Origin: a virus
Length of the DNA: 64,000 nucleotides
Virus record (IMG/VR): IMGVR_UViG_3300045988_147821
Location: 1-64,000 of that record
Reading direction: 5' to 3' (one strand)
Every line of letters starts with the position of its first letter. Within the stretch, counting starts at the first letter, position 1. The notes beneath the pieces were generated by a model that was given only the letters and a program-made list of their open reading frames with translations, had not been told where the DNA came from and searched no databases. Made by a program: the position numbers and the translations under genes. Shown here one piece after another: positions 2,539 to 44,317 of the stretch.

Positions 2539-2683
2539 TTTTATTTAGTTTTTCAATTAAATTACTGCCAAGATCTAACCATTCTTCTTTGAATACTAAC
2601 GGCCAACCGAATATGATAATTGCAAGAATTATTGAAGCTATCAACCATAGAACCCACATCAAAAACACAATTATATTATTCAT
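2531..2683 (-). CDS. small predicted membrane protein (50 aa)
   Basis: ATG 2683. MNNIIVFLMWVLWLIASIILAIIIFGWPLVF forms one hydrophobic helix. The 3' end overlaps the ATG of 2236..2538. Below the track cutoff. Confidence 0.4.
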   Translation of the reverse strand: MNNIIVFLMWVLWLIASIILAIIIFGWPLVFKEEWLDLGSNLIEKLNKND

Positions 2684-2702
2684 ATTTTATACGTTTTGAT
2701 AG

Positions 2703-2873
2703 TTATTTATTTACGGTTGATTTTACAATTATCTTATTATCGGATGATGGCATTACAATCACATTTCCGGCATCTGTGCTAATTTTTAAAATAGGATTAA
2801 AGTCAAAGTCAGTAGTGGCTACTATAATCATATCTCCAAAAACATATCTTTTATCTTGTTCTATCTCATTCAT
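2703..2873 (-). CDS. hypothetical protein (56 aa)
   Basis: ATG 2873 overlaps the TGA of 2870..3097 (ATGA coupling). Below the track cutoff. Confidence 0.4.
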   Translation of the reverse strand: MNEIEQDKRYVFGDMIIVATTDFDFNPILKISTDAGNVIVMPSSDNKIIVKSTVNK

Positions 2874-3097
2874 ATATGTTCTGTTTTGAATTTCTCATTT
2901 ATTTCCTTTTCTGCCGCCTTAACCCCTTTCTTGAATCCCTCCACAAAGCTGTCAAAGCAAGTTCTGCTTATTTCCGGAGTGCAGCTTCTCAAAAGCGGGC
3001 AAATCGAACATCTTTGGCTAAGTCCGGCTGACTTCTTGGCTATTTTCGTTACGTTTTTCATAGGCTTTACACTCTTCACAATGCAGTTTGTAAGCAT
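2870..3097 (-). CDS. small Cys-containing protein (75 aa)
   Basis: The track ORF starts at TTG 3103; the first ATG is at 3097. Preferred over the overlapping plus-strand ORFs because it fits the co-directional coupled chain. Confidence 0.45.
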   Translation of the reverse strand: MLTNCIVKSVKPMKNVTKIAKKSAGLSQRCSICPLLRSCTPEISRTCFDSFVEGFKKGVKAAEKEINEKFKTEHI

Positions 3098-3109
3098 GGG
3101 CAAACATTC

Positions 3110-6600: not shown

Positions 6601-9600
6601 AGTCGGTTTCCCGATGTGATTCCACCCGGAGTATGGCTAAATTTCTGTGTTCCGTTCCACCATACGGTACTTATTGCCGAACCGTTGTTCCATCCGTTCT
6701 GTATGGTGAACCGTATTTCCTGATAATTTTGGGAAGTGATTCCTCCCGCAGTGAAAGCTGTTGACCACGGTTTTATGCGGCTTATGTAATGTAATCCCTG
6801 ATAATAGGTGGCTGTGAACTGTGCTGAACCGTTTGTATTACTGTTGAACAATATCTTATGGTTTTCACAACACATCATTTCTACGGCCGTGTTCGTAATG
6901 TTCTTCCCTCCTACCTGTACGGTAACTGTCTTGTTAAACGATACGCGCTTCATGTTGATTGTGAGTGCTGTCGCATTTTCTCCAAGAGTTCCGCTTGCAG
7001 CCGTGAAATTGGTGGCTGATGTATTTACCGTATAAGGAGATGTCTTGTAGACATTCAGCACAACCTGTCCGCTCGCGTTTGTCGTTCCCGAATAGGTAAC
7101 GGTGTTTTTTCTTGTTGAGGTAAGTTTTACCGTCGCACCGTTTATACTCTGAACCCAATCCGTCCATGTACCGTCCTTGACGGTTATTGTCACGTTGTAT
7201 TTGACGGGTTCCATTGCGACACCAAGATTTCCCGATGTTTGGGATATGGCTGTTACCTTATTGTTGTAATCGGCACGTGATGCGGTTGCCGAAACCTGTC
7301 TTGCTCCTACATATACATCCACATAATTGTTACCGCTACTGTTATATGTCTGTGTGGCGGTTGCGCCTGTTGCCGATACCGCAACGCCTGTAACATTCTG
7401 ACCGAATATGCTGTTGGTGAACGTAAGACGCACTTTCTTGCTTATCGTAAACTTCAATGTGGTGGAAGAACCTGTATTTGCAGGTGTCCATGACTGTGTA
7501 CCGTTGGAATAGTTACCCGAATAGGGTATCTGTATGGAGAACAGAACCCCTACATATCCCTGTATGGCTAATACACCATTTTCGTTTGACGTATATTGCT
7601 TGGTTGCACCACTTTGTGTGACATTGAACGAACCTAGACTTCCAAGTAACTGCCCGTTTGTCTGATCACCGAATCCCGGAACAATCTCACGAACCGTAAC
7701 GTTGAATGTCGCCTGCTGGTATGCAACCGAAAGGGTAATTGACATGGAAGTAGTTCTACTTGGCATATTACCCGAAGCGGAAGTAAATATATTGTTTCCT
7801 CCTGCCTTGACTGCATAATTACCACCCGAAAGAGGAACGTTAGGTACGGTCCATACTCCCGAAGCGTCTGTTGTTCCTGAAAATGATACGGTAACACCAT
7901 TCAATGTCTGTGACATGCTTGTAGGACAGGAAGCCGCCTTTCCGCCCGTTGTGGAGTTGTTTACGGTTATGGTGGCCGTACCTGTCTTTCTTGTAAGAAG
8001 AACCTTGTAATTCTCTCCTATCGCATGATAGGTGTGTGCAGGGATGCTTCCTGTCCATATTCCTGCCGAATCGGGAAGTTCAAATGTGACAGGAACCTCC
8101 AGTGATGCGGTGAAGAACACCTTTCCCTGTTCGTTGGTCACGCCGGAAAAAAGCTGTTTCCCTGCTTGTGTGACAATAACGGCAAGTCCTGAATGTATCT
8201 TACCGTTTGCCTGATCACCGAATCCCGGGATTTTTGTCCATATTTCCAGTGACACCTGCCCTGTGTTATATACAACCTGTATGTTGAGGTCATTGGATGT
8301 CGCTCCGCCACCAATAGGAATTGTTGCCGTACCCGATATACTGTCATACGTAACATCCTCACCTGCCGTCCAGTTGTAAGGCCCGGAAGGAACATTCTGT
8401 ATGGTGACAGTGCCGTCCGTTCCTGTACGTACATCGAACTTGATGGACGAATTAAGCTGGTGCGTGAGAATGATACGACAATCGTCTGCCTTGTCACCCG
8501 TATTCTTTTCCGTTACAACAATCTTCTGCGTGTACACCTTGGATATAAGGGTATATGAATAGGATTCACCTACTGCACCGAATGTATGGGAGAAAGTAGC
8601 ATTGGTGGCGATAAGGTTATTGTTGTTCTTGTACGTGAAGCTGACGGGCAATCCGATAACGACACTGATGGTGGCATTTCCGCTTGTATCGGTTGTAAAT
8701 GTCTTTGCTTCACCACCTCCCTGCTGGAACGAGAACAAACCTCCGTTAAGGTTGACAACAAGTCCTTCCCTGTACTGCCATTTCATATTGACAGTCACAT
8801 CGCCCGTATTGTATGTTACCGAGTTTGTCCATGTCGCAAGAGGTGATTCCACACCGTTCACTGGAAATGATACCTCACCTGTTTTCTGCTCATATACGGC
8901 ATTCCCGCCAAGTGTATAGGTATAATCTCCGTAATATACATTAGGAATGGTTACAGTACCATTGCTGCCCGTTGTTGCCGTATATTTGATGCTGGGATTC
9001 CATTTGGAAACAATAGTTATGGGACAGTTTGCCGCAATACCTCCTGTAATTGATTCCGTAAGTTTCACAGGAATGTTATATTGCTTGGCCGTGAAATCCA
9101 ATTTTATCCTTTCCACATCTTCTTCTCCTATATGATCATACGGGTTGAACACGTTGGGAGTATTGGTAAAGTATTTCAGTTCACCCGTCAGACGCATTTC
9201 ATTGGGAGAAAGCCAGATATTTTTGGGAAGCGTTGCCGTTGCTGCCGATTGTTTGAGTGCAGTGTTGGATGTGTCAAGTTCCACTGTCAGATTCTGTACC
9301 GTACTGATGGTCTGTGACGGGTATATCACGTTGTTGTATGTTATGGCATGCGATACAAGTGGTGTTGTCACCATTTGCAAATTTCCTCCTGTCAATTCAC
9401 TAGGAAGGACTACATGCGCTATTTCGGCATAGAATATGTTGTAGTTCTCCTTGAACTGGAACTTGTATCTTATCCCTGCGAACGTGTCGAATGAAATCAA
9501 GCCCTGTGCATTCACTTTTTGATCGGATAGGAGCAATTGGTTGTTCGCATAAATATCAAACGGTATGTTTGCAGGAAGCGGGGATTCTACCTGTGGAGCA

Positions 9601-12600
9601 ATACCATCCTGTACAGTATATCTTCGTGTCAATGTCCATCCCTTGTTTTCGGTAACTTTTCTTAATGCGATATCTGTGATAAATTCAGTCGGTTTCTGAT
9701 GTCCGACAGGGAAATAGATACGTTCGGTATTAGGCTTCCAGTCAGAATCGTTACCGTCCGAACCCCATTCATAAACATAATATCCGGGTGCCAGGGGATA
9801 CATTTCGGGTTTACCGTCCGATTCAAACTGTCCGTCCGTATCTGTAACACCTGTGAACACATATTCAGGAGCAAGCTGTCTGTGAATGTCTACAATCAAT
9901 CCTACTGCCTTGGTTGATACAGGGAAATCTGCGTCAATATCCATCTTCCATATCAATTCGGGATAGTCAAGATAGATTGTCTTGGCGGCAGTAGGAGGTG
10001 TTGTAAATGTAAGTTCGTTATTCTGTGTTATATGGTCTACCTGTGTTGTGACTGTATCAAATGTTCCGGGAGAAACATAGAATGTGGATGCCCCTAGTGC
10101 ATCCACCCGTATTCTTTGAGGACGTGATTGTCCTGTAACGGCAATTTCGGGATATTCCTCCGGGCCGTTCTCTACTTCGATAGGAAGGTTTGAGTTTTTC
10201 TGTAACACATTGAAAGTCAATGTTTTAATACAGGTTACGGTCCATCTGAAAAAGTCTGTTGCAACATCCATTTTCCATGAATGCTTGGTTGAATCATGAT
10301 TATAGAATCCTTTGTCAACAAACTCTATCGTGTATTCGACAAGAGGAAGAATGTCAACTGTCACCTGTCCGTTTGCACTGATTGCATAGGTCTTGGTAAC
10401 AGTTTCAAACCTGTTGGTTGACACCCATTGCAGACCTGTTACCTTGATACTTATACCATTAGTAATAGGATTAGCCGTTGCAGTTTCCTCATCAGAATCA
10501 AGAGATGATGATGTTTTCGGGATAATTTCATCTATTTCAAAGATAGAGGTCTTTGTACGTCTGTCCATAAGAACATTCATTGTCATGTCTTTCAGACGTT
10601 CAAGAGTGAAGTCAAGCTGCGGGGTATCAATATAATCGGGGTGACTTGCAATCAGATAGTATTCTCCCGAATGTGCCGAGAACTGGCATACACCGTTTGA
10701 CAGGGAGAACAATTCCTGAATCATTTCACCCGTACCCTTGTTATACACCTTCACACTTGCACCCTCTATCGGATTGTTTGAAAGGTAGTCAAGTACGGTA
10801 ATCGTATTGATACTGTCACGTACCTCCATATAGACGATTTCCTTATCGTCCTGGTCCTGTACGGTGATGGTACCTAACTTGTCCTTGTAATTCGCCCTTC
10901 TTGCAATATAATCGTATGAACCGTTAGGAAGTGTTGCGACAATCTGCCCGTTCACATCAGAAATGTATATCTTTCCACGGATAGTTACCTGTACACCCTG
11001 CAAGTAATCTCCTGTATCAATATCACGGAATACAAGATAATAGTTGTAATATGCAACACTAAGTTGTACAAGAACCGATTTGCTTGCTCCATCCACAACA
11101 ACAGTACCGTTGTATTTCAGATAGCCGGATTTGAACACGACAAAATCCCATGTTCCCGATACAAGGGAAACGATTGTCTGACCCGATTCATCCGTCAGAT
11201 AGGTTTGATTGTTGACTTGCAATGAAGCGTTGGGAATGACCTTGTTCGTTTCAATATCAATGACAGTGAATGTTATCTGATAGGGTGCGCTTTCCATTTC
11301 AAGGAGCACACAATTGTCTATGCGTGCATCGACATCAAATTCTCTGTGGAAAGATAAGTAACCGTCACGGACCGCATCAAGTTCATAACTTCCTATCCGT
11401 AACGGCATGGAAGCCTGTCCTTCAAGGTCTGTCTTGGTGGTCATGTTACGGACAGAAATGACTGCATCGGGAACAAATATCTGATTCATTCTGTCTATTG
11501 CGGCAAAATTTACCTTCATCGTTTCCACAAACATTTCCTCTTCAATCAGAATATCCTGATTAAGCACGCTCAATCCGTTTGTAATGGTCTGATAGTTAAC
11601 TTTTTCTATCGTATAGGCATAACTACCAGGTTCCAATGACACGACAGCCGTACCATCCGGCCCTGTGGTGTGTTCCTCACCGTTGATTGTAATGAGTGCG
11701 TTCTCAACAGGATTAAGACCTGTAATCACCTTGAACGTTACATTGTAGGGGATAGCGTAGAAATCATTGATTGTGATATATACGGGCTGATTTAGAATAA
11801 CGAACTGTCCTGTACGTGTCACCCAATTCTTCTTGGTAAGCGTATAATTGTATTCTCCGTTTTCAAGAAGAATGTTTGCCGTACCCTTACTGTCAGTTGT
11901 GATAACAGAGTTTCCGATAGAGATTGTTGCATCAGGAACAGGATTGTTTCTTGTGTTTACAACCTTAAATGATGCAAGATAGGTAATGCCTGTTCCTATC
12001 TGTGACACAATCTTATCCCCCTCACTTGCAGGATAGAAATAGGACGAAAGTGTTTGGTTTGAATCATACAGGATATTACCCTGTAAATCCCTCATTCTGA
12101 ATCCCTGTATTCTTGGAAGCTGATTGATTGGAACCTCCATATCATATCTTGGATTGAAGTATTCGTCGGGAACATATTTCACACCTTCCGCATTTTTCAC
12201 AACAGAGAGCAAATCATCCCACTGAACCGTCTTTCCTGCATCCCAAAAACGGAAGTCAAGATATTTGGTCAATGCCACTTGAATATTTCGTCTTACTTCG
12301 GCTGTCTGATATTCCGAACTAAGTTCCACACGGAAGTCTATACCTGTTTCACCTCCTACAATCATCCATTTGGCATTGCGTAGACGTATTCCGATTACAT
12401 CTCCGTTCAGGTCAATTTCGGAAATGGAGAATTTTGACTTCACTTTTTCAAGAAGCACACCCAATTCATCTTCCGTAAACAATACACCGTTTTGTGTAAC
12501 AAGGTAGATATAGGTATTACCGTCCTCTCCAAGGCCGACATTCATCACCTTCAAAACCCTATCATCAGCTTCCTGGAATATCTGTGTCCAATATTCCATC

Positions 12601-13190
12601 GTGCCTTGGGAATATCTGTTACCGTTATTTCTGATACGTTTACGGAATGTTTCATCATCCTCATAATCTCGTCCGCCAATAGCATAATATTCGTTCGTGC
12701 ATTCAATGTGTCCTAAAGGGCGTGGAGAAATCTGGACAATGCTGTTTGCTTCCACATTGGATGCAAGTCCTGTAATGGTACTTCGTACATGAACATATCC
12801 GTAACCCGATTCATTTACGGTAAGTGCTTCATCCGTTTCAAAACGTACACCCGATTTACTGATAAAAGTAGAACCAACAGCATACTTTGTTCCCGGTTCG
12901 GCATATACACGTACATACGTGGACGAACCAAGAGCATTCTTTCTTGGGCTTACACCAAACAAAGCTGCCGACTTGTCAAGATAATCACCTGTGGCATATT
13001 CGGGGAATAACTGTGCTTCCACAATGGCAATATCCTTGATTGCCTTCTGTGCCACCTTACCTACACCAAATGCAATGGCGTTGACCACTGAACCGTCAGC
13101 AACATTGCTTATCTTCGATGTCTGATCAATCAATACCTCTAAAAAGAGGTTTTTAAGAGTAGAAATACCGTTGTTTACTTTTGTAATCAT
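3657..13190 (-). CDS. giant baseplate-J-like / tail-fibre fusion protein (3177 aa)
   Basis: Single uninterrupted 9.5-kb ATG ORF. It has a Baseplate_J-like N-terminus, tandem CarboxypepD_reg-like beta-sandwich repeats, three ~180-aa super-repeats and a Tyr/Phe/Asn-rich C-terminal ~750 aa. Last gene of the baseplate block. Confidence 0.85.
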   Translation of the reverse strand: MITKVNNGISTLKNLFLEVLIDQTSKISNVADGSVVNAIAFGVGKVAQKAIKDIAIVEAQLFPEYATGDYLDKSAALFGVSPRKNALGSSTYVRVYAEPGTKYAVGSTFISKSGVRFETDEALTVNESGYGYVHVRSTITGLASNVEANSIVQISPRPLGHIECTNEYYAIGGRDYEDDETFRKRIRNNGNRYSQGTMEYWTQIFQEADDRVLKVMNVGLGEDGNTYIYLVTQNGVLFTEDELGVLLEKVKSKFSISEIDLNGDVIGIRLRNAKWMIVGGETGIDFRVELSSEYQTAEVRRNIQVALTKYLDFRFWDAGKTVQWDDLLSVVKNAEGVKYVPDEYFNPRYDMEVPINQLPRIQGFRMRDLQGNILYDSNQTLSSYFYPASEGDKIVSQIGTGITYLASFKVVNTRNNPVPDATISIGNSVITTDSKGTANILLENGEYNYTLTKKNWVTRTGQFVILNQPVYITINDFYAIPYNVTFKVITGLNPVENALITINGEEHTTGPDGTAVVSLEPGSYAYTIEKVNYQTITNGLSVLNQDILIEEEMFVETMKVNFAAIDRMNQIFVPDAVISVRNMTTKTDLEGQASMPLRIGSYELDAVRDGYLSFHREFDVDARIDNCVLLEMESAPYQITFTVIDIETNKVIPNASLQVNNQTYLTDESGQTIVSLVSGTWDFVVFKSGYLKYNGTVVVDGASKSVLVQLSVAYYNYYLVFRDIDTGDYLQGVQVTIRGKIYISDVNGQIVATLPNGSYDYIARRANYKDKLGTITVQDQDDKEIVYMEVRDSINTITVLDYLSNNPIEGASVKVYNKGTGEMIQELFSLSNGVCQFSAHSGEYYLIASHPDYIDTPQLDFTLERLKDMTMNVLMDRRTKTSIFEIDEIIPKTSSSLDSDEETATANPITNGISIKVTGLQWVSTNRFETVTKTYAISANGQVTVDILPLVEYTIEFVDKGFYNHDSTKHSWKMDVATDFFRWTVTCIKTLTFNVLQKNSNLPIEVENGPEEYPEIAVTGQSRPQRIRVDALGASTFYVSPGTFDTVTTQVDHITQNNELTFTTPPTAAKTIYLDYPELIWKMDIDADFPVSTKAVGLIVDIHRQLAPEYVFTGVTDTDGQFESDGKPEMYPLAPGYYVYEWGSDGNDSDWKPNTERIYFPVGHQKPTEFITDIALRKVTENKGWTLTRRYTVQDGIAPQVESPLPANIPFDIYANNQLLLSDQKVNAQGLISFDTFAGIRYKFQFKENYNIFYAEIAHVVLPSELTGGNLQMVTTPLVSHAITYNNVIYPSQTISTVQNLTVELDTSNTALKQSAATATLPKNIWLSPNEMRLTGELKYFTNTPNVFNPYDHIGEEDVERIKLDFTAKQYNIPVKLTESITGGIAANCPITIVSKWNPSIKYTATTGSNGTVTIPNVYYGDYTYTLGGNAVYEQKTGEVSFPVNGVESPLATWTNSVTYNTGDVTVNMKWQYREGLVVNLNGGLFSFQQGGGEAKTFTTDTSGNATISVVIGLPVSFTYKNNNNLIATNATFSHTFGAVGESYSYTLISKVYTQKIVVTEKNTGDKADDCRIILTHQLNSSIKFDVRTGTDGTVTIQNVPSGPYNWTAGEDVTYDSISGTATIPIGGGATSNDLNIQVVYNTGQVSLEIWTKIPGFGDQANGKIHSGLAVIVTQAGKQLFSGVTNEQGKVFFTASLEVPVTFELPDSAGIWTGSIPAHTYHAIGENYKVLLTRKTGTATITVNNSTTGGKAASCPTSMSQTLNGVTVSFSGTTDASGVWTVPNVPLSGGNYAVKAGGNNIFTSASGNMPSRTTSMSITLSVAYQQATFNVTVREIVPGFGDQTNGQLLGSLGSFNVTQSGATKQYTSNENGVLAIQGYVGVLFSIQIPYSGNYSNGTQSWTPANTGSSTTLKFTISKKVRLTFTNSIFGQNVTGVAVSATGATATQTYNSSGNNYVDVYVGARQVSATASRADYNNKVTAISQTSGNLGVAMEPVKYNVTITVKDGTWTDWVQSINGATVKLTSTRKNTVTYSGTTNASGQVVLNVYKTSPYTVNTSATNFTAASGTLGENATALTINMKRVSFNKTVTVQVGGKNITNTAVEMMCCENHKILFNSNTNGSAQFTATYYQGLHYISRIKPWSTAFTAGGITSQNYQEIRFTIQNGWNNGSAISTVWWNGTQKFSHTPGGITSGNRLICTLRVKVSDGSVTYHETRDTATWVNWIKANLTTGGYIAIVHTVCYKTQGFALNASEANSIVNMGNFGQCSIPGWWTLGGRYVFVLTNSPSGSGQNTGWMDLDLTNNTVGTYIRKGSVSPFTENNNTGVWGYNPTTSDTAAYTWNINPGSINANGGTYPYNHLKCIDGFNSGILSGATGVVTYSMGYQTQTTGSLADNGECWGKMLPGNVSWSVSKSGYLSASKGAVGLWTSRYQEITLARQGMFVKMTFRDTAQNATAPAGVAVQITGTDENGASIGTINLTTDASGSAIYNAKRLKQGSTVTWKFNYNYATMGWFDSTGSFTLPTSIPSGGTYAVTLSVDRIGDGTPWVEERGFKTSSIWNTGLSSLSESTSVYPVQDIYRRNICAIGPAPFGTQASAAYNPTPCLIFAYLMISKFGSGSSSRWSYVLCGLSAQLAFDPNIFTLYYNPIGSVITRPQVIVAGNSVNMMCSWNLTTFIYTAVSYSDNTSYSFTSTFGFFTYYHINPSYFYFVTHNDTITMQGDTDHTAWPAYHAGVMYQNFFTTTATSRGNYTLAYEYYFIAERDKDMFGRFYVTYGVFQNMMYADTDSNSPIVASSNVYRFGKALTSSYKFYMSPCNYFTNTSLFIAEAIMYNGKDYSFLESVIRNRDMFQSVIFYNILKTQTVSGMYIHQYFFNNIYGVYFAYTKPVSGITGSGANALLGLQLCHPFQPDNTMTTLNQYITSDCNDYIEYYNTGTLASGNVYNNYIFAHNFTGNKPNFYLFLTLTEFKKDVYINNYSGWQIGSMDVTDLSSQSPWNTLLSGYGNFKSVWRVQANSDFSKILIYMINLNNSQKIGLANNPEGGEIIMHSSSNYCTLDGIIAVQKVSGGSYKVVKNLNLIGWTDAMRNKIIGKPVACMGFTSRRPASFVSVSNPNGDVDSSKIVDDDERKRIVEQFSVPEKHAVVINHTLSVVNNMYLKQSAVNRDSGADLMTEFIIKF
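7440..9075 (-). repeat. three ~180-aa super-repeats inside the giant protein
   Basis: Each unit has a module with a conserved Cys (ANCPITIV / DDCRIILT / ASCPTSMS ...G(S/T)(N/D)G(T/V)(V/W)T(I/V)(P/Q)NV) plus a second module (PGFGDQANG / PGFGDQTNG). Unit starts lie near 9071, 8530 and 7985. Confidence 0.5.
10596..11978 (-). repeat. six tandem ~75-aa CarboxypepD_reg-like repeats (protein level, aa 405-865)
   Basis: Recurrent P-V-P-D-A-x-I-S-I...T-D-x-x-G-x-A...L-x-x-G-x-Y-x-Y units, e.g. NPVPDATISIGNSVITTDSKGTANILLENGEYNYTL, NPVENALITINGEEHTTGPDGTAVVSLEPGSYAYTI, VIPNASLQVNNQTYLTDESGQTIVSLVSGTWDF. Confidence 0.6.
12066..13190 (-). other. Baseplate_J (P2 gpJ / T4 gp6)-like domain, aa 1-375 of the giant protein
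   Basis: Pattern ..DYLDKSAALFGVSPRKNA..GSTFIS..G..FETDE..NVEANSI..N..AIGGRDYEDDETFRKRIR.. matches the family signature as I remember it. Confidence 0.6.
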
Positions 13191-35769: not shown

Positions 35770-37809
35770 TTAATGTAATTGTAATCGGTATATAGACTGT
35801 TTTGTCTTGACAAGAAAATCATCAATCAATGACAGTTCACCAAAGTAATCTTCATCCCCGTCCAACGATTTACGGAATTTGGTTGTTCTCTCAAACAACA
35901 GTTTGATGAACTTCAACGGATCAGATTCTTCGATTTCTTCCGATTCAACCGTATTGGCATCAAATCGCCCGAACAATGCCTGTCCTGATTCGGCAAGAGT
36001 ATCCTTAAAGTCATTCATCAAGTCACCCACTTCATCAAGATACACATGTTTAGAATTATCTTCTTCTGTCCAATGAAGATTGTCCTTACGGGTAATCATA
36101 CCCTGTAAGAAATTGATATAGGAGAGAAAATCGGCTTTCTTTGTCTTTTCAGATTTCTCTATATCATCATTTTCCTTTTTGACATCGTTTTCAACGGACT
36201 TATTTATTTCTTCGTTCCTTCTCAAACCATTTACATAAATACAGTTATGGTTAAACTTCCATTCCTGTTCACCGTTATCAGGAGTGATTACCTTGACTGA
36301 AAAATCAGCGCATCTCCCGGACACTTTCTGTATCATGCCCAACATGTCAAAGAACTTTTCCGCACTTTCGGAATTTACCCCCGAATAACTAAAAGAACCT
36401 TGTCCATATACATCTTCTATCGGCTTTTCATCAACCTCCACATATTTCTCCGAATACTGTCTTTTCTTGAATGAAATAGCCTTCTCCACCTTATCGTCAC
36501 CGTTTTCAACACCTGAACCCTGTGGACCAACAACTTCTTCTTTAAGACTTTCAGGAGCGATTTCCCCAGCATCGGCAGTAGTCATGGCTTTTTCTTCAAC
36601 ACCTGTTTCGTTTTCCGACTTCTCAACCTTTCCTTCTTTCTTCTCTCCCCATGATTCAGGTAACTTGTCTGTAAGACCAAGTTCCTTTGCACGTTTTCTT
36701 ATCCATGCCTTTACTTCTGATTTGGGCATGTCGGATGCTCCTACAAGACGTATGGCATCATGTAAATCCTGTTCGTTTCTGATAGGATATTTACCGTTCG
36801 GCATCGCTTCACCTTTCTTTGCAAGATCCTTTCTTTCTGAATGAGAAAAATAAGTTTTGTTCTGCGCTTTCAAAACTTCATCAGGATGCTCCTTACAATA
36901 GGTGTCAAATACTGATTTGCTGATATATCCTTCCGAATATGCTTTCAGTATCCTTGTTATACCGCATGAATCGTCAAGACCCATAATTCTTTTCAGATTC
37001 TCTTTCATATCGAAAATAAAGTTGTAATTATCAATTTTATCCAGTTTTATCCATGCAGAACCAACTTCCTCTTCGCTGTCAAGTAGGATGCTTGCACCTT
37101 CCTTTTCATCAAGAGTGACCATATAATAGTGAATGTCCGCATCGTTGTTTTTATAGGTGGCTACCTCACGTAAACGGTCTGCGGCCACCTCTATTCCCGT
37201 TTCCTCCCACAATTCTCTACGTGCAGCTACTTTAAATTCTTCTCCTTCATCTACATGACCTCCGGGAATACACCAATCATCCGTTGCCTCTCCCATATCG
37301 GTACAACGGTTAAGGATAAGTATTTTTATCCCATCGGGAGTGAACTTCTGAACAATAACATCCGCATATTTCACGGCACCCTTGCTTTTTAGAAAATCAA
37401 AGTACACAGATTTTGTTATCTGTTTCTTTTGATATAGGTATCTCATTTTTTCCGCCTTGTCAATCTCCTTGATTGCAATAGAAAGATCCTTGTCGGATGA
37501 AATGGATTTCATCACGCTCTCATTCTTTATAACAAGGCCACGTAAATCGGATACTTTTATCCCCTGTTCCTTGATAAAATCATCATATCGGTTCATTGCA
37601 TCCTTCATATCTTCATCCATTTCACCTTTCTCCATGAACATGGACTTCAATGCGGACATTTCAGAGAAAGACTTGGCAAGTTCATTTCCCTTGTCTTTGT
37701 ATTCATAAGACTTACGGACAGCACTTCTATATTTTCTAAGTTTATCCGAAGCAGTTTCTAACCCAAGTAAACTTCTTATATTCATAATCAAATTTTTAAA
37801 TAATCTCAT
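35770..37809 (-). CDS. 679-aa head-module protein with internal Nudix hydrolase domain
   Basis: Perfect Nudix box G-x5-E-x7-REUxEExGU at aa 184-206 (GHVDEGEEFKVAARRELWEETGI). Alternative start at ATG 37785. Also carries GEAMPNGKYPIRNEQDLHDAIRLVG....VKAWIRKRAKELGL, a motif I recall from phage head/scaffold-associated proteins. Confidence 0.8.
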   Translation of the reverse strand: MRLFKNLIMNIRSLLGLETASDKLRKYRSAVRKSYEYKDKGNELAKSFSEMSALKSMFMEKGEMDEDMKDAMNRYDDFIKEQGIKVSDLRGLVIKNESVMKSISSDKDLSIAIKEIDKAEKMRYLYQKKQITKSVYFDFLKSKGAVKYADVIVQKFTPDGIKILILNRCTDMGEATDDWCIPGGHVDEGEEFKVAARRELWEETGIEVAADRLREVATYKNNDADIHYYMVTLDEKEGASILLDSEEEVGSAWIKLDKIDNYNFIFDMKENLKRIMGLDDSCGITRILKAYSEGYISKSVFDTYCKEHPDEVLKAQNKTYFSHSERKDLAKKGEAMPNGKYPIRNEQDLHDAIRLVGASDMPKSEVKAWIRKRAKELGLTDKLPESWGEKKEGKVEKSENETGVEEKAMTTADAGEIAPESLKEEVVGPQGSGVENGDDKVEKAISFKKRQYSEKYVEVDEKPIEDVYGQGSFSYSGVNSESAEKFFDMLGMIQKVSGRCADFSVKVITPDNGEQEWKFNHNCIYVNGLRRNEEINKSVENDVKKENDDIEKSEKTKKADFLSYINFLQGMITRKDNLHWTEEDNSKHVYLDEVGDLMNDFKDTLAESGQALFGRFDANTVESEEIEESDPLKFIKLLFERTTKFRKSLDGDEDYFGELSLIDDFLVKTKQSIYRLQLH
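37192..37260 (-). other. Nudix box (aa 184-206)
   Basis: Direct match to GX5EX7REUXEEXGU. Confidence 0.85.
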
Positions 37810-38209
37810 CGCATACTAAAATACCGTCAGCAAAATAACTATGCGCCCGATTTACTTCAAGAGAATAGCATATCTTATTGATAGTTTCCATCTTTTCAAT
37901 ATCCACTATCTTCTTTATCCCTTTCAAAGTTAATAAACTATCTCCCTTTTTCAAATCCTTGACATATCTCCATCCATCTTCCGACATAACAAGCTGCACT
38001 CCTTGAAAACGATAACCTACAATATCATCATCACATCTTATATTATAGGAAACATCATATTTGGTTGCCAATTCCTGAACAAGTTTCTTGGCTATATGAT
38101 AGCTTTCCTTATAGGACATGACAGACATACCAACAACAATATCTTTGATGTATTTGTCACCCTCTATTGTCCTTATCGCTGTAAAACCCGAATTGAATCC
38201 CATAATCAT
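37796..38209 (-). CDS. free-standing degenerate Hint-fold (PT-HINT/mini-intein-like) protein (137 aa)
   Basis: GFNSGFTAIRTIEGDKYIKDIVVGMSV (block A-like, no Cys1) ... EDGWRYVKDLKKGDSLL ... ICYSLEVNRAHSYFADGILVCDEII* (block F/G-like, CD in place of HN). ATGA overlap upstream and a 14-nt overlap with the Nudix ORF. Confidence 0.6.
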   Translation of the reverse strand: MIMGFNSGFTAIRTIEGDKYIKDIVVGMSVMSYKESYHIAKKLVQELATKYDVSYNIRCDDDIVGYRFQGVQLVMSEDGWRYVKDLKKGDSLLTLKGIKKIVDIEKMETINKICYSLEVNRAHSYFADGILVCDEII

Positions 38210-38829
38210 TCCTCCCCTTTATATTCTGACTTGTTTCCTGTCAACACCCGTGCACTCTCCATATCCAATGCACGCAAGAAAGTATCTTCCATGACATAGG
38301 AGAATCCCGGCTCACATTCCACTTCATATATAGTAGATGTTACGGGAATACGGGTAACATTCATATTGTGCCGTCTGTAATAAATGATATTTGAACCGTA
38401 TGACATGGAATTTTCCGGCCCGATATCAGGCAAGCAATAATTCCCTTCAAGAACTTCACTCACTTTCTTTGTTATGAACGGCATCCATACCACATCATTA
38501 GGATTGTCGGGTATTTCCTTGCACATGATAAGAGTATCAGGGTGCATCAAGGGGAAACACGTTTTCTTTCCGACATAGTTCTTAAATTCCAATCGAAGCA
38601 AATCCCCCTCATATTCGATAGGGGTAACGCTTACGATGGTTCCATCGCAAAACTTCATGGAATTTCGGTCAAACAGCAAAGTAACAGGAGAGCCTTGCAC
38701 TGTTCTAAATGTCTTGTCACCTGTCATAATTCGTTTGTTTTCCTGTAACTCATTAAGAACTTTTGGGCTTTTAATCCCAAGAACATTCTCGTAGACACAC
38801 TTTATTCTTTGTCCTGAATCCAAAAACAT
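38206..38829 (-). CDS. free-standing degenerate Hint-like protein (207 aa)
   Basis: M-FLDSGQRI (block A-like with Met at the Cys1 position), IEYEGDLLRLEF..GKKTCFPLMHPDTLIM (pre-block-B/TxxH-like), IYEVECEPGFSYVMEDTFL (block F-like). No terminal HN. Confidence 0.5.
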   Translation of the reverse strand: MFLDSGQRIKCVYENVLGIKSPKVLNELQENKRIMTGDKTFRTVQGSPVTLLFDRNSMKFCDGTIVSVTPIEYEGDLLRLEFKNYVGKKTCFPLMHPDTLIMCKEIPDNPNDVVWMPFITKKVSEVLEGNYCLPDIGPENSMSYGSNIIYYRRHNMNVTRIPVTSTIYEVECEPGFSYVMEDTFLRALDMESARVLTGNKSEYKGEE

Positions 38830-38847: not shown

Positions 38848-40890
38848 TTAAACATCAAATTCCTTAGTTCCAACCTTGATATGAATTTTGGATTTTCGTC
38901 TTACCTTTCTTTTCTCTTCTTTCATAGGAGAAGTGACGAACATCCTTAATTTTTCATCCCATTCATCAAACATCGGGTTGTAGTATTGGAGCGAGCAACG
39001 GCAATTACCTGATACACATACCTTATTGTTTCTACGAATAATTAACGTATGATTTCTTTCCAATTCAACATCATATATATATCCCTCATATTCTATGACA
39101 TTTTCCTGTATTCTTCTTTTAAGATTGTACTTATTTTTTAATACATTTATCCATAAAATATCATTCTTAGATATATATACCTTTCCCCTTTTTACATCAT
39201 TATAATACCGTTTACCTGTATTTTTAAAAGAAGGTCTTTCTCCGGTTTTTAAAATCAATTCACCCAAATCATCAGCCAATCTTTTACTAGTTGTTATATA
39301 ATGAACTTGTGGCTTAAATTGATACCCTTTCCACACTTTTCCTTTATGAATAGTACCATCTCCAAGTCTAAATGCTTCTAAAAATAAAGAAATGTTTTCC
39401 GAAGTTGTTTGCTTTATAAAATCAGGAACATATCTTACATCTTGCTTTCCTAAATTATAGAAAAACAAAAGTAATTCAGGTTTACTGCAAGCAGAAATAG
39501 TGATTCTATCTTTATCATTTCTAGCCTTTTCCCCAAACAAAGAAGAAGAACATAACCACATCTTTTCCTTAACCTCTTGCTTTAATTGAATCAATTGGAT
39601 TAATTTTCTATCTTCAACCAATGTTCCATCTGAAAGCCAATAGCCCAAAAATTCACAAAACAACTTAAAATCATACTTTATTCCATCAAACTCAATATAC
39701 TCTAAATCAGTTCCTTTCCATTTAGGTATAGTAACTAAAAAGGTAAAATCTTTAGGAAGATCGCTTTCCTTTACTAACAATATATTTCTACCCCTTCCTT
39801 TATTATACTTATTTGTACCAACATGTACATGATTAGGGGTTGTACAAAGGTTATAATCTCTACTAACTCTTTCTATCATAATACCTTTATATTGTTGGTT
39901 TATATACTTAATTGCTTGCACATATTCACCTTCACCAGAACTAGGATTAACTGACAAAAATAATTCATCACCCTTTAAGTCTTTAAAAAACATAAACCCT
40001 TTGTCAGTAAGAACCTCTGTTTTATCATCATAACAGAAAGGGTGCGTAGCCTGGACAGTAGGAAGCCATTCTCTCTGCCTTCTCCCTACGTTGGTCCCAT
40101 TGGCAAGCAATTCTTTCAGTTTGAAAATTTTGGGCCTTGAACCAAGTCCATTTGTAGTAAAGAAACGTATGCAATATGAGCATGCACCATTGAACACTGT
40201 CTTATATACAAGGGCATCCTCACCATGCAAGTCAAGAATACTAAGTGCAGTTCCTTCCTCAAAGATATTCTGCATCTCTGTTTCCATGATACGAAGCCAG
40301 TCCTTTTCCCATATCTGCGTTCTATGACCTATGTCACTTACAATCTGTTTTATAGTCTGTTTTTTATTGAATACAGCACCATTCATAACAGCTTCCTGAA
40401 TCACCCTGCGTTCAGCTTCTGCCTGTGCATTGTCATATTGGGATGCAACCTCTCCAAGAATAGCTTCTGCCACATCCTTTTTCATCTTATCTCCAAGACC
40501 TTTGAGATAGGTATATGTTTTTGTAGCCGCCACACCAAGCCGCATTTGATCTGTAAGCGTCAATTGGGAAACCTGTTCGGATGATACGAATTTATAAAAG
40601 TCAGCATATCCTAATGATGCAGTCTGTCTTGGTTCAAGAACTCCGGCAAGTCTACCGAAAATCATGGCCTGCTGATATGGTGGGATTCGCTTCATCTCCT
40701 TTTCAAAATCAAAGTTGAACTCTTTAAGGAGTTTCTTGTCTGATTCCGAAATAAACTGTTTCCCCAACACTTTTACGATAAGACGAACAAGACGATAGTC
40801 TATTATTCTGAATATCCTCTTGATTACTCCGTCCTGTTCATAAAAAGGTGGATAAAACCTCAAATCCTTATCTATCCTGTTTTCTGCCAT
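38848..40890 (-). CDS. MuF / SPP1 gp7-type head morphogenesis protein interrupted by an intein (680 aa precursor; 336-aa spliced product)
   Basis: Joining the exteins restores ..GACSYCIRFF...WLPTVQATHPF|CRCSLQYYNP, the MuF H-P-x-C-R-C signature. Position directly after the portal. Confidence 0.8.
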   Translation of the reverse strand: MAENRIDKDLRFYPPFYEQDGVIKRIFRIIDYRLVRLIVKVLGKQFISESDKKLLKEFNFDFEKEMKRIPPYQQAMIFGRLAGVLEPRQTASLGYADFYKFVSSEQVSQLTLTDQMRLGVAATKTYTYLKGLGDKMKKDVAEAILGEVASQYDNAQAEAERRVIQEAVMNGAVFNKKQTIKQIVSDIGHRTQIWEKDWLRIMETEMQNIFEEGTALSILDLHGEDALVYKTVFNGACSYCIRFFTTNGLGSRPKIFKLKELLANGTNVGRRQREWLPTVQATHPFCYDDKTEVLTDKGFMFFKDLKGDELFLSVNPSSGEGEYVQAIKYINQQYKGIMIERVSRDYNLCTTPNHVHVGTNKYNKGRGRNILLVKESDLPKDFTFLVTIPKWKGTDLEYIEFDGIKYDFKLFCEFLGYWLSDGTLVEDRKLIQLIQLKQEVKEKMWLCSSSLFGEKARNDKDRITISACSKPELLLFFYNLGKQDVRYVPDFIKQTTSENISLFLEAFRLGDGTIHKGKVWKGYQFKPQVHYITTSKRLADDLGELILKTGERPSFKNTGKRYYNDVKRGKVYISKNDILWINVLKNKYNLKRRIQENVIEYEGYIYDVELERNHTLIIRRNNKVCVSGNCRCSLQYYNPMFDEWDEKLRMFVTSPMKEEKRKVRRKSKIHIKVGTKEFDV
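39004..40035 (-). mobile_element. LAGLIDADG-type intein (344 aa)
   Basis: Cys1 (TGT, 40033-40035) in CYDDKTEVLTDKGF. Block B is TTPNH. Two LAGLIDADG motifs (FLGYWLSDGT, LFLEAFRLGDGT). Block F is IYDVELERNHTLI. Terminal ..VSGN (Asn 39004-39006) followed by +1 Cys (39001-39003). Confidence 0.85.
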
Positions 40891-41080
40891 AATCTATCAG
40901 TTCTTCCGTTATCTGCTTTATCATGTTAGAAATTTCATCCTTATAGATGTCGTTGGCCTCACTCTCATATACATCCTGAACCTTTGGGAAAGGAGGTTGC
41001 TCCTTTGTCCGGGATTTATAGAATATCTTCCCATCAGGAGCAATCTTTTTAATGAATTGAAGTCCTTTTTGCATTATCAT
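40868..41080 (-). CDS. hypothetical protein (70 aa)
   Basis: ATG ORF between portal and MuF, overlapping both (4 nt and 23 nt). Confidence 0.5.
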   Translation of the reverse strand: MIMQKGLQFIKKIAPDGKIFYKSRTKEQPPFPKVQDVYESEANDIYKDEISNMIKQITEELIDYGRKQDR

Positions 41081-42810
41081 TCACCTCCAAACATCTTGTT
41101 GATAACTTCCGTGGCCCTGTCCATGATGGGATTGTCACCATACATGGATTTGTATTTTGCAAATGGATCTTCTTCCTCTGCTGCCACATTGGATGATGGT
41201 TGCTCTTCCTCATTCTCCACACCTTCCACTTCACCTCCGTTCATCTGACCTCCCATGGCAGCAGCGTTATCCTTGTTGATTTTATAATTCATCCATACGG
41301 AATTGAGGATTGTGTCCTTTTCAGGATTGAACGGTCTGCCTGAATATGCTTCAAAAGCATCCTCCAATGAGATCATTCCTGCTTCAAGTTTCTTCTTGTC
41401 GATTTCCACTTTCAATGCTTCATCTTCAAGATCAACGCCTGTAAAAGCAAACTCGAATGATTCATCAAGTTCCGATACAAGATATCTTGTTATGATTTCT
41501 TGTAGGAAGGATAACATGGGTTTAAGACCTTTCTCACGTGAATGCTTTAATCTCTGTCGTTGGCCGTCCTGTCCGAACATCTGTGCGGATTCCTTGAACT
41601 GGAATCCTAGTTCTGAGGGGTCTATACGATAGACAGAACATATCAGCACAATAAGGAATTGGTTCCATAAATTGTACTCCATATCCTTGTTGTTTTTGGT
41701 CAAATCAATCCATTCAACCTGTGATTGTGCCAAAACAGGGATTCTTCCTGCGTTTTGAGGTCCTGCCATCATTTGATACCACATTTGCCTAAACTCGTTC
41801 AAAGTGGTTTGGGAAACATTTTCACCCTTGATATTCAACAGACCTTTGGGGAATACGCCATTCTTGAATGAATTACCATTGGATTGTAAGGACCATAAGA
41901 ACCATGTCACAATCTCATTGAGTGTTTCAAGTTCCGAAACCCCGTATCCGTTACGGTAGACATCGGTTGACTTGTTACGCACCCCGAAACCGAGTTCCCA
42001 CGGGTAATAGACGATTGATTCGCCTGTGACGGGATTTTTGAGAATCTGATTATCCCACACCATACAGTAGCGGGGCAAATATCCCTTAAACCGATATTTC
42101 TCGAACTCCTGCCTGTTCCGTGGGTCAACCGCACCAAGGAAACGTACAAGTGACGCGTCCACCGCCTTGAATCTGTCAAGTTCCCACATCCTGTTTCTTG
42201 TGGTTTCAAACGCAAGCTGGTCAAGTGTCAGCGAATCAAACGAAATCTTTCTTATGAAGTCGGGAAGGGTATCATAGTTATCCCATTTGTCGGTGTTGCC
42301 ACCTCGTTCCAGGAACTCCACGATTTTTTCTACCTTCTTCTTGTCTTTCGATGATAAAGACAAATCTCCCGGATCAAACAAACCTCTTTTCTTTCTGATG
42401 GTATAACCTTCCTTCTGCTCGTCATCGGAGAAGTGCAGGAAGTTCTGTATCTGCTCTATACGTGTGTTTACGATGGCCCTTACAAGATAAATTCCACCCA
42501 TTCTACGTAACGTACTGAATGGAAGAATACCTCTTTGAGCAAGATAATCACGTCCACTATCGTTCCATACCTGCGGATCAAAGAAAACGGATTGAAGTTT
42601 TCCATTATCCGAAGTCTTTGAACCAAGATACAGATTTGCTTTCATCACATCTTCCACATCCCTAGACATCATAGAAGATTGTAATTTTGATTGCAAAAGC
42701 ATGGGAACAGTCTTGCTTAATCTGTCCAGTTCATTGAAATCAAGGGAAGCCAAAGACTTCAACAAGTCAGGCTTCCCATTTTTATATGTATTTTTCCGTT
42801 TTCTACTCAT
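41077..42810 (-). CDS. portal protein (577 aa)
   Basis: Size and position immediately upstream of MuF. The track start 42843 is a TTG that would overlap the upstream gene; the first ATG is at 42810. Confidence 0.6.
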   Translation of the reverse strand: MSRKRKNTYKNGKPDLLKSLASLDFNELDRLSKTVPMLLQSKLQSSMMSRDVEDVMKANLYLGSKTSDNGKLQSVFFDPQVWNDSGRDYLAQRGILPFSTLRRMGGIYLVRAIVNTRIEQIQNFLHFSDDEQKEGYTIRKKRGLFDPGDLSLSSKDKKKVEKIVEFLERGGNTDKWDNYDTLPDFIRKISFDSLTLDQLAFETTRNRMWELDRFKAVDASLVRFLGAVDPRNRQEFEKYRFKGYLPRYCMVWDNQILKNPVTGESIVYYPWELGFGVRNKSTDVYRNGYGVSELETLNEIVTWFLWSLQSNGNSFKNGVFPKGLLNIKGENVSQTTLNEFRQMWYQMMAGPQNAGRIPVLAQSQVEWIDLTKNNKDMEYNLWNQFLIVLICSVYRIDPSELGFQFKESAQMFGQDGQRQRLKHSREKGLKPMLSFLQEIITRYLVSELDESFEFAFTGVDLEDEALKVEIDKKKLEAGMISLEDAFEAYSGRPFNPEKDTILNSVWMNYKINKDNAAAMGGQMNGGEVEGVENEEEQPSSNVAAEEEDPFAKYKSMYGDNPIMDRATEVINKMFGGE

Positions 42811-42823
42811 TTCTGCAAAAATA

Positions 42824-44317
42824 TTATGCCGAAGCTCCAGCAAGTTGATTAAGTGCCACAGTAGCTTCTTTTCCGCCCTCTGTTGCCGTTACCACCGCCG
42901 AACCTGTACGGACTGCGCCTGTATTTGCGGCTGCAACTACCGAATAATCCGTAGAGCCTTTAGTAAATCCCGTGCCGGAAACAACTGTCGTATAAGTTAC
43001 AACAATAGGTGCACCTGAATCCTTTCCGTTCACTTTCTTCTGCTTATTTGAAGTAACGCCAAACACCTTGGTTTCTCCAGCTGCGGCAAATTGAAGTGAA
43101 GTGGGGTCAACTGTAAGTTCATATTCATAAGTTACAGTGGCTGCGGACTGGGTTAAAGTTATTTCGGCAGTCTTTCCACCTTCACTTGCAGTAATGGTAA
43201 CTTTTCCTGTCCGCTGTGATTCGGTTGTATTTTCAGCCGCAACAACTGTTGTATCATTACTACCTTTCGTAAATCCTGCTCCTGAAACAGTAGTCGTGTA
43301 ACCTACATTAACAGGAGAACCTGAATTTTTACCATTTACCTTCTTCTGCTTTTCGGAAACCACATTAAATGACTTGGATTCACCCTTTGCAACGAAAGCA
43401 ATACTTGTGGGCGTAGGAAGCAAAGAATATTCGTATGTAATGACGGATGCTGCCTGTGTAAGATCCACTGTCACACTCTTACCACCTTCATCCATAGTAA
43501 TGGTTGCAGTTCCCTTTCTCTGCGTATTACCTGGATTTTCAGTCACCTTAATGTTGAATCCATCGGAAATGGCTTCATGGGAGAATCCTGCTCCGGCAAG
43601 TTCTATATCCGTACCTATCTTTGTAGGAGCCCCTGACGGTTTTCCATTTACCACAGTCTGTTTGGTTGAAGTAACGGTCACTTTCTTTGTTTCTCCCGTA
43701 TTCACAAATAAAAGTGTCTTTGGATCTACCACCAAATTGTAAGTATAGGTTACAGTGGATGCAGCTTGCGTAAGGTCAATAGTAATCTTCTTATTGCTCT
43801 CATGCTGTGTTACGGTCAAAACCCCGTTTCTTATGGAATTGGTAGGATTTTCAGGAATTGTCACCGTTCCACCTTCACTTACTGCATAAGGAAGTTGTGT
43901 TTCAAAGTCAACTTCCAACGGTGTTTGTACACCTGTCGGCTTTCCGTTTACATAAAGTTGCTTATAGGAAGTAACAACAGCCTCTATGCTGTCACCTTCC
44001 TTGGGAAACGCCATTGTCTTATCTTGCGGAATAAGAAAATAACGCATCTCTTCAACTATATCAACAAGAATCTGTTCCTTTCCTCCCAACTCTTCTGGAT
44101 AAGCTATAAGTTGCAGTGCATGGTTTGTGGCCCATTGTTTGAATACTCCGATATTATAGGTCAGTCCGGCACGTATCACAACACCCATACCCTCATAATA
44201 TTCCCTGTCACCTATGACATTTTCAGTCACAAAAACATTCATTTGGCTGTCTATGCCATCAGTAATGACCGTTAAACGGTGACTTTCATCTCTATTTATA
44301 AACAACAGCCGTAACAT
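42824..44317 (-). CDS. protein with four tandem BACON/Ig-like repeats (497 aa)
   Basis: ~95-aa repeats ending ..TVDLTQ / ..ITLTQ / ..VALNQ, with an L-x-(V/P)-x-P-x-(T/S)-(L/I)-x-F...G(E/T)-(T/S)-K-x-(F/V)-x-V-x-S...(E/A)N-(P/T)...R-(K/T)-G-x-(A/V)-x-(I/V)-T pattern typical of BACON domains. The N-terminal ~90 aa is shared with the two upstream paralogs. Confidence 0.65.
   Translation of the reverse strand: MLRLLFINRDESHRLTVITDGIDSQMNVFVTENVIGDREYYEGMGVVIRAGLTYNIGVFKQWATNHALQLIAYPEELGGKEQILVDIVEEMRYFLIPQDKTMAFPKEGDSIEAVVTSYKQLYVNGKPTGVQTPLEVDFETQLPYAVSEGGTVTIPENPTNSIRNGVLTVTQHESNKKITIDLTQAASTVTYTYNLVVDPKTLLFVNTGETKKVTVTSTKQTVVNGKPSGAPTKIGTDIELAGAGFSHEAISDGFNIKVTENPGNTQRKGTATITMDEGGKSVTVDLTQAASVITYEYSLLPTPTSIAFVAKGESKSFNVVSEKQKKVNGKNSGSPVNVGYTTTVSGAGFTKGSNDTTVVAAENTTESQRTGKVTITASEGGKTAEITLTQSAATVTYEYELTVDPTSLQFAAAGETKVFGVTSNKQKKVNGKDSGAPIVVTYTTVVSGTGFTKGSTDYSVVAAANTGAVRTGSAVVTATEGGKEATVALNQLAGASA
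42827..43975 (-). repeat. four tandem ~95-aa BACON-like repeats (protein level)
   Basis: See the parent CDS. Repeat units are clearly alignable by eye. Confidence 0.6.

Follow-up and report, generated by a model that had tools for sequence, protein, structure and literature searches.

A conserved free-standing Hint-fold protein, lacking the canonical autoprocessing residues, in the head module of uncultured gut phages

We analyzed a 64,000-nucleotide (nt) stretch of viral DNA (IMGVR_UViG_3300045988_147821, positions 1-64,000; hereafter the window), in which a head-morphogenesis block on the minus strand includes a free-standing open reading frame (ORF) of 137 amino acids (aa) with the Hint (Hedgehog/intein) fold. 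The order of this block is portal, a 70-aa ORF, a MuF-like gene, a 207-aa ORF, the 137-aa Hint ORF and a Nudix/DUF5856 gene, and downstream of the latter lie a protease-like ORF, a scaffold-like ORF and an SU10-type major capsid protein (MCP). A preliminary description of the region had proposed that the 207-aa and 137-aa ORFs are both Hint proteins without splicing residues, and that the second overlaps the Nudix gene in the +1 frame. Both ORFs (38206-38829 and 37796-38209), as well as all of the peptide strings quoted from them, are present in the sequence. The features of the block are:

41077-42843, minus strand: portal gene (Pfam Phage_portal), in the same gene order in relatives.
40868-41080, minus strand: conserved small ORF of ~70 aa between the portal and MuF-like genes, in the same order in relatives.
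38848-40890, minus strand: MuF-like minor head protein of 680 aa, with weak PHROG matches and a LAGLIDADG_3 match; carries an intein.
38206-38829, minus strand: lineage-specific 207-aa ORF that fills a variable slot flanked by the MuF-like and Hint genes; its likeness to Hint does not exceed chance.
37796-38209, minus strand: free-standing Hint-fold protein of 137 aa (Pfam PT-HINT, AlphaFold and Foldseek, family profile against the PDB, substitution rates and synteny).
37783-37809, minus strand: Hint/Nudix junction, with the Hint stop codon TAA at 37798-37796 and the conserved Nudix start codon ATG at 37785-37783, 10 nt past the TAA.
35770-37785, minus strand: Nudix/DUF5856 head-module protein (Pfam, PHROG and PDB matches), 671 aa from the conserved start, or 35770-37809 in a 679-aa reading.

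The Hint assignment of the 137-aa ORF was examined by both sequence and structure. The ORF matches the Pfam family PT-HINT (PF07591) above its gathering cutoff (33.3 bits against 27.7; E 6.9e-8; residues 12-129), and a profile built from 15 family members finds, by sequence, the gp41-1 intein (E 8.3e-9) and the bacterial intein-like (BIL) domain BIL2 (E 2e-7) in the PDB. We modeled the protein with AlphaFold from an input alignment of 20 family members, and the best of the five models (predicted local distance difference test, pLDDT, 87.3; predicted template modeling score, pTM, 0.80) returned 58 Foldseek matches in the PDB at E<=0.001, every one of which is a Hint domain. The top match is the Tetrahymena BIL2 domain (E 4.9e-9; template modeling score, TM, 0.77), the gp41-1 intein (6qaz) aligns with a TM of 0.76/0.81 and a root-mean-square deviation of 2.0 A, and the other matches include many inteins and the Hedgehog Hint domain. 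Among BFVD models, the matches include entries titled 'Hint module'. Together, these results show that the product of the 137-aa ORF is an independent protein consisting of a complete Hint fold, and the likeness first noticed by eye is upheld by the profile and structure comparisons alike. The protein probably starts at ATG 38203 (135 aa), as called in relatives, rather than at ATG 38209.

Next, we mapped the catalytic positions of the Hint fold by aligning to the 137-aa ORF two sets drawn from an exhaustive HMMER search, 203 canonical Hint domains and 36 members of the family. The positions resolve as follows:

Cys1 column (five residues ahead of the canonical G-T, in which Thr is 98% conserved): Phe5 in the window, and Phe in 100% of the family.
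Block B Thr-x-x-His, positions 69-72: QGVQ in the window; in the larger sister subfamily His is present in 65% and Thr is not kept.
Penultimate His: Cys133 in the window, and Pro or Cys in the family.
Terminal Asn: Asp134 in the window, and Asp in 100% of the narrow family; Asp also occupies this column in 24% of the aligned canonical Hint domains.

All canonical catalytic positions are therefore replaced, and the residues required for autoproteolysis are absent. This mapping confirms what the preliminary description had said of the splicing residues, of Cys1 (Phe5 stands in the aligned column) and of the terminal His-Asn, which is indeed Cys-Asp (C133-D134). Its statement that block B is replaced is also correct, but the replacement had been assigned to the string MSED, and the true position is QGVQ. 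Downstream of Asp134 the protein has just E-I-I before the TAA, without a +1 nucleophile, and in relatives the tail after the Asp is variable in length (0-9 residues). The ORF begins 2-4 residues ahead of the domain and stops 3 residues past it, alike in all relatives, and has neither an N- nor a C-extein. Since exteins and all of the standard nucleophiles are missing, the predicted protein cannot splice or release anything by a canonical mechanism. The best-conserved parts of the family are nonetheless the N-terminal FNSG and C-terminal YFADN..D strands, which correspond to the former active site.

We then asked how widely this protein occurs. A word-indexed alignment search recovered 31 proteins, nearly all of 135-160 aa, and the exhaustive HMMER search added further stand-alone members of ~140 aa (P0037, P0046, P0049, P0053, P0091 and P0095) that have a common FNSG/FCSG N-terminus and non-canonical C-termini; the other matches of this search are ordinary inteins and tandem BIL/PT-HINT arrays. 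Hint is its own ORF with a stop codon in all ~78 Hint-anchored loci (from IMG/VR and other assemblies) as well as in 79 of 79 MuF-anchored IMG/VR loci. Across these loci (>150) the genes invariably run portal, small ORF, MuF-like, Hint and Nudix/DUF5856, and the Hint position is kept across lineages that share only 25-35% identity. The 174 HMMER hits and the fetched loci contained neither MuF-Hint nor Hint-Nudix fusions. Between the window and its relatives, the ratio of nonsynonymous to synonymous substitution rates (dN/dS) of the Hint ORF is 0.05-0.10, with synonymous divergence (dS) of up to 1.2; the gene is under purifying selection. In every locus the gene is linked to those for the portal, the MuF-like and Nudix proteins, the protease, the scaffold and the capsid, which agrees with the earlier placement of the ORF in a virion-assembly module.

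The phages that encode this family are ~100-kb, uncultured phages of the human gut, with a capsid protein similar to that of Bacteroides phages DAC16-23 and of SPO1-like phages. Judging from these capsid relatives and from neighbors with BACON domains, their hosts are probably Bacteroidota. The family was not detected in the cultured capsid relatives Bacteroides phage DAC19 (38% MCP identity) and Chryseobacterium phage MA9V-3, nor in representative bacterial and archaeal genomes (GTDB). Most of its members fall below every Pfam Hint cutoff and have zero PHROG matches, and the free-standing family is absent as an entry of its own from curated libraries. Consistent with the earlier remark that these proteins could not be placed in a known family, the sole match among curated families is the marginal one to PT-HINT. 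A literature search on free-standing or inactive phage Hint proteins found no paper describing them.

The nearest known domains are the BIL/PT-HINT domains (PF07591; 2lwy, 6tmm/6y75), to which the window Hint is related by fold, by its best sequence and structure matches and by the size of a ~135-aa mini-domain. PT-HINT precedes a toxin domain, and the window Hint likewise lies directly upstream of an enzyme-encoding region. In contrast, BIL/PT-HINT domains form part of larger proteins, in which Cys1 and His-Asn serve autoproteolysis, whereas the window Hint is a separate polypeptide with Phe and Cys-Asp in these positions and no flanks, and most of the phage Hint members score under the Pfam cutoff. 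Among mini-inteins, the cyanophage-like gp41-1 (6qaz) is the closest solved mini-Hint by TM and profile E-value, and the phages studied here carry true inteins in their MuF-like and portal genes. Unlike these, the window Hint is without a host protein, splice junctions, nucleophiles or a homing endonuclease, and while inteins are sporadically present, the phage Hint family is fixed and vertically conserved. Split inteins and fractured genes (Dassa et al. 2009, PMC2677866) offer a further comparison, in that Hint-related sequence is also found where neighboring ORFs of phage-like metagenomic DNA meet. There, however, the Hint halves reside on two gene fragments and act by trans-splicing, whereas here one ORF holds the whole domain and its neighbors are without intein halves.

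Two further proteins resemble the window Hint in being stand-alone, single-domain Hint proteins of ~143-151 aa: the BFVD entry A0A8S5P792 ('Hint module', metagenomic Herelleviridae sp., 144 aa) and g075 of Lactobacillus phage P1. In both, the N-terminal Cys is replaced and the C-terminus carries an Asp, as in the window Hint, and neither has a described function. P1 g075 (L088 11821-12252, equal to KX223815 61821-62252) is annotated as hypothetical and encodes 143 aa that run from MDIGFAAGT to VVHD and a stop, with Gly in place of Cys1 and Asp in place of the terminal Asn. It differs in keeping the penultimate His, in being just 23% identical to the window Hint and in lying in an early-gene region.

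On either side of the Hint gene, the neighboring genes bear on its possible role. The upstream gene can be labeled MuF-like tentatively, from weak PHROG matches ('minor head protein', E 5.7e-4; phrog_595, E 7.5e-5), its position after the portal gene and an HPFCRC motif; the form HP[FY]CRC is one that we take to agree with a MuF identity. The match to PF04233 (Phage_Mu_F) reaches an E of 0.34 only, in one of five members, and a PDB search with the protein gave no match. At its C-terminus the MuF-like protein has the conserved string KSK[VI].I.VG.K.F.V. Its ORF is interrupted by a 344-aa LAGLIDADG intein (39004-40035, minus strand; boundaries CYDDKT...VSGN|C) that splits the motif as HPF|CRC. 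We observed an intein-less allele of 336 aa in the near-identical relatives L006-L008, L010 and L011 and the intein in L009; the MuF-like intein is a presence/absence polymorphism inside one phage population. Close relatives also carry portal inteins (L008 3407-5785, L009 2375-4753 and L011 2714-5785; 792 aa, or 1023 aa with LAGLIDADG), and the 588-aa portal of the window has none. The 70-aa ORF between the two genes (40868-41080) showed a weak match to our custom Hint hidden Markov model (HMM) (9.9 bits; E 0.026 among window ORFs), which is probably due to chance.

The Nudix/DUF5856 gene is invariably the next one after the Hint ORF. Its product matches the Pfam families NUDIX (E 1.1e-17) and DUF5856 (E 5e-4), a PHROG Nudix family, phrog_858 and Nudix structures in the PDB; a pattern search located an intact Nudix box (GHVDEGEEFKVAARRELWEETGI) at residues 184-206 of the 679-aa reading, and the C-terminus is a DUF5856/Dps-like region. 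Nudix regions are likewise found within a PHROG that carries a portal annotation, and Chryseobacterium phage MA9V-3 has one as a 235-aa gene of its head module (L086 7592-8299); both cases fit a head-cargo context. The window protein has the look of a head-internal enzyme. Sites resembling promoters or terminators showed no excess over shuffled sequence in this region, which agrees with a single operon. The window as a whole is in essence one long minus-strand late operon without tRNA genes, and its structural region downstream of the head genes contains a 3177-aa ORF (3657-13190, minus strand).

We next considered the 207-aa ORF, which the preliminary description had taken for a second Hint protein. 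It is a real gene, with a dN/dS of 0.03-0.06 at a dS of up to 2.6 (near saturation). Its homologues form just two near-identical clusters; no homologue beyond its own sublineage was found by word-indexed search, by tblastn against phages or by phmmer against the ORFs of the fetched loci, and searches of Pfam, the PDB and PHROGs gave no match. It is possible, but we think doubtful, that this protein is a very divergent Hint domain (approximately residues 60-187 behind a 58-aa leader), such that the locus would encode two tandem free-standing Hint proteins. The string FCDGTIVSVT (residues 60-69) does resemble the N-terminus of the Hint family (FCSG[FY]IEI.T), weak hhalign matches follow the order of the Hint profile (58-63 to 3-8, 121-137 to 81-97 and 168-173 to 115-120), and a low-confidence model is beta-rich at residues 57-119. 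Against shuffled controls, however, this likeness is at the level of chance: z was -1.05 for global alignment, 1.33 for local alignment and 1.43 for the collinear chain (8 of 80 shuffles equal), and trimming to residues 55-190 gave a best z of 2.5 (3 of 60 shuffles equal), compared with 8.85 for a mini-intein cut from the neighboring MuF intein as a positive control. Direct comparison with the Hint family by hhalign gave a probability of 0.45%, and the 239-sequence Hint HMM scored the protein at 0.1 bits.

An AlphaFold model of the 207-aa protein (from 3 sequences) was unusable (pLDDT 35) and had no meaningful Foldseek match. The structural check that the preliminary description had called for aligned the 137-aa protein to the Hint fold and gave no such result for its 207-aa neighbor; of the two proposed Hint ORFs, the former is borne out and the latter stays a doubtful candidate. 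Similarly, the reading of M-FLDSGQRI as an intein-like N-terminus of the 207-aa ORF finds no support, as the motif likeness is at chance in the calibrated tests.

The content of the slot with the 207-aa ORF varies between lineages. Most have nothing there; the window lineage has the 207-aa ORF, five loci have TnpB-like genes, and 23 of the 79 MuF-anchored loci have a distinct family of 185-203 aa, which 70 IMG/VR loci (L168-L237; match at 2501-3100) encode overall and which is also present at L093, L107 and L148. This family is recognizable by the motifs GY[KR]GD..., ...IDEKTFD... and ...YEGKLYNI..EYAL.., and Pfam and PDB searches with it were empty. No single match to the Hint profile was significant (P 0.012-0.022), but four weak matches are collinear, with a chain z of 3.7 that none of 80 column shuffles equaled. 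This score suggests that sister lineages may hold a second Hint-like gene, and it counts in favor of the 207-aa ORF, which occupies the same slot, being one as well; the two proteins nevertheless show no significant link to each other (P 0.13-0.16). Separately, we observed IS200/605 TnpB-like ORFs of 394-403 aa at differing intergenic junctions of the head module in different relatives (for example, L001 3784-4995 and L005 5664-6860 on the minus strand), including just past the Hint stop (L054, L064, L067 and L075) and between MuF and Hint (L113, L119 and L139).

What might a Hint protein without catalytic residues do in a head module? On balance, we consider it somewhat probable that the Hint fold is reused here, in a separate protein of a conserved head-module family, as a non-catalytic binding or structural module. 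In head assembly such a module could act as an adaptor that couples the MuF-like/portal complex to the Nudix protein or to different cargo inside the head. It may go back to a processing domain in an arrangement of carrier, Hint and cargo, the old junctions having become gene boundaries: the ORF ends within a few residues of the domain bounds, and the gene order is like that of carrier, HINT and toxin, both of which suggest descent from a processing domain.

Several observations weigh against this reading. We infer the function from gene position and the loss of catalytic residues only, and a fused carrier-Hint-cargo ancestor was not found among the sequences searched. A comparative survey pairs MuF systems with papain-like peptidases rather than with HINT (PMC3482391), and the MuF assignment of the carrier gene itself consists of weak profile matches. 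The similar stand-alone ORF of Lactobacillus phage P1 sits among early genes and not among head genes, and the family was not found in any cultured phage. Of the five AlphaFold models one is confident, with the remaining four at pLDDT 52-55. Lastly, the near-invariance of the former active-site region (FNSG; YFADN..D) could point to a residual chemical activity instead of pure binding.

A more elaborate form of the adaptor idea holds that the MuF-like, Hint and Nudix genes are a polymorphic-toxin-like delivery cassette, split at old autoprocessing junctions, in which the dead Hint would be a non-covalent adaptor that loads exchangeable cargo (the Nudix/Dps-like enzyme and the lineage-specific 185-207-aa slot proteins) onto the portal/MuF complex for packaging in the capsid and injection into Bacteroidota. 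The order of carrier, processing domain and enzyme cargo is indeed like the domain order of polymorphic toxins, to be compared with MuF-associated, head-packaged effector systems (Zhang et al. 2012, PMC3482391), and a Nudix cargo could plausibly be packaged into the head. Those systems, however, are built as one polypeptide, whereas here there are three separate genes without a toxin/immunity pair, and the MuF assignment is weak. We regard this scenario as rather unlikely.

A comparably low likelihood attaches to the idea that the Hint protein is not a part of the virion or its assembly at all, but acts in the host cell, for instance as a regulator or in anti-defense, and merely rides the late operon. 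P1 g075 (ending in VVHD), lying as it does among early or replication-region genes, gives this idea some substance, and phage Nudix enzymes often act on host nucleotides. The P1 protein is, however, only 23% identical to the window Hint and could have been derived independently, and the strict linkage of the Hint gene to the portal, MuF-like, Nudix, protease, scaffold and capsid genes, without a promoter-like break, is more readily reconciled with a role in the head.

It is less probable still that the Hint protein keeps a non-canonical self-processing activity, whether by succinimide or anhydride trimming of the tail at Asp134 or by a class-3-like route through the conserved Cys of the C-terminal region. 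Some inteins with a C-terminal Asp or Gln still cleave. The invariance of Asp in the terminal-Asn column of the narrow family, its presence in about a quarter of canonical domains and the strong conservation of both former active-site strands are all compatible with such chemistry. Yet the protein of several lineages ends with the Asp itself (..VCVCD, ..VCVND and ..ILVSD, each followed by the stop), leaving nothing to cleave, and in wider members it is missing (..CIFG and ..IESSKI before the stop). In addition, the length of the tail varies, the penultimate His is gone and, in the window, so is the His of block B.

That the ORF is a decaying intein or BIL remnant without present function is very improbable. 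The loss of all catalytic residues is what a relic would show, and this phage clade has been invaded repeatedly by inteins in the adjacent portal and MuF-like genes. Against decay, the gene is under strong purifying selection even at a dS of up to 1.2, its reading frame is intact everywhere, and it is retained at its position in every MuF-anchored locus across highly divergent lineages. Our preferred reading remains the non-catalytic binding or structural module, with a separately translated Hint protein as its starting point.

This separate translation is best seen at the Hint/Nudix junction. As previously described, the sequence contains an ATG at 37809, a TAG three codons upstream of it and a 14-nt overlap of the resulting frame with the Hint ORF; the true gene overlap drawn from these does not hold, as the upstream ATG merely adds eight codons to the Nudix ORF. 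An alignment across 14 lineages revealed a conserved N-terminus of the Nudix protein, M-x-[IL]-[NRK]-x-[LF]-L-G-[LIF]-x-[TS], which in the window is MNIRSLLGLET from ATG 37785, and in near-identical relatives gene callers pick the equivalent start. The overlap is an artefact of start-codon choice. Across lineages the distance from the Hint stop to the Nudix start ranges from 4 to 45 nt, homologous spacers vary in length by amounts not divisible by 3 (30, 32 and 42 nt, for instance), and over ~78 junctions the Nudix gene lies in frame 0, +1 or +2 relative to Hint, depending on the lineage. These junctions indicate that the Hint gene uses start and stop codons of its own, and that it is tightly packed and would be co-transcribed with its neighbors; the preference in the preliminary description for separate translation over fusion was well placed, given the Hint stop codon found everywhere and the conserved Nudix start.

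The same description had raised a +1 shift into the Nudix gene, and fusion of the two proteins at ..ATT ATT TAA A.., whether by a programmed shift to +1 or by readthrough of the stop, can be dismissed as extremely unlikely: although the upstream-ATG frame overlaps the Hint stop in the window, four lineages have the Nudix gene in frame 0 behind a spacer without a further stop, and one database protein (P0030) runs from Hint into the Nudix N-terminus, a conserved fusion is rejected by the varying frames, the spacers of non-multiples of 3 and the conserved Met-initiated N-terminus of the Nudix protein, the source contig of P0030 has several frameshifts and a truncated start, and no full-length fusion exists in >150 loci. 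The fusion-like database proteins P0030 and P0033 were accordingly discarded, their source contigs being frameshifted or chimeric. We also noticed an intergenic motif of ~30 nt, TTCGTATATTTA[CG]TGCAAAA(A)TATTAT, between the Hint stop and the Nudix start in three diverged lineages (L003, L046 and L057), which may be a regulatory element; the TTCGTATATTTA motif is missing from the window, whose spacer is just 10 nt long.

Much of the value of this analysis is corrective, in that neither the frameshift idea nor the claim of two Hint proteins should be carried forward as first stated. What is new is the uncatalogued free-standing Hint family, the fold itself being known and its nearest kinds being BIL/PT-HINT domains and mini-inteins; the Hint protein displays none of the testable defining features of inteins and release domains. 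The family also flags an unannotated core gene, with a variable slot beside it, in an abundant group of ~100-kb human-gut phages with uncharacterised head-internal proteins, among them a Nudix enzyme that looks packaged. Hint domains are otherwise known almost exclusively as self-processing modules, as in inteins, BIL/PT-HINT domains and Hedgehog proteins. A strictly conserved free-standing Hint protein that has lost every catalytic residue, at a fixed place in a head operon, would represent a clear case of reuse of this fold beyond autoprocessing, and, if the cassette or adaptor reading is true, a novel role of the fold in building the virus, one that involves no enzymatic activity.

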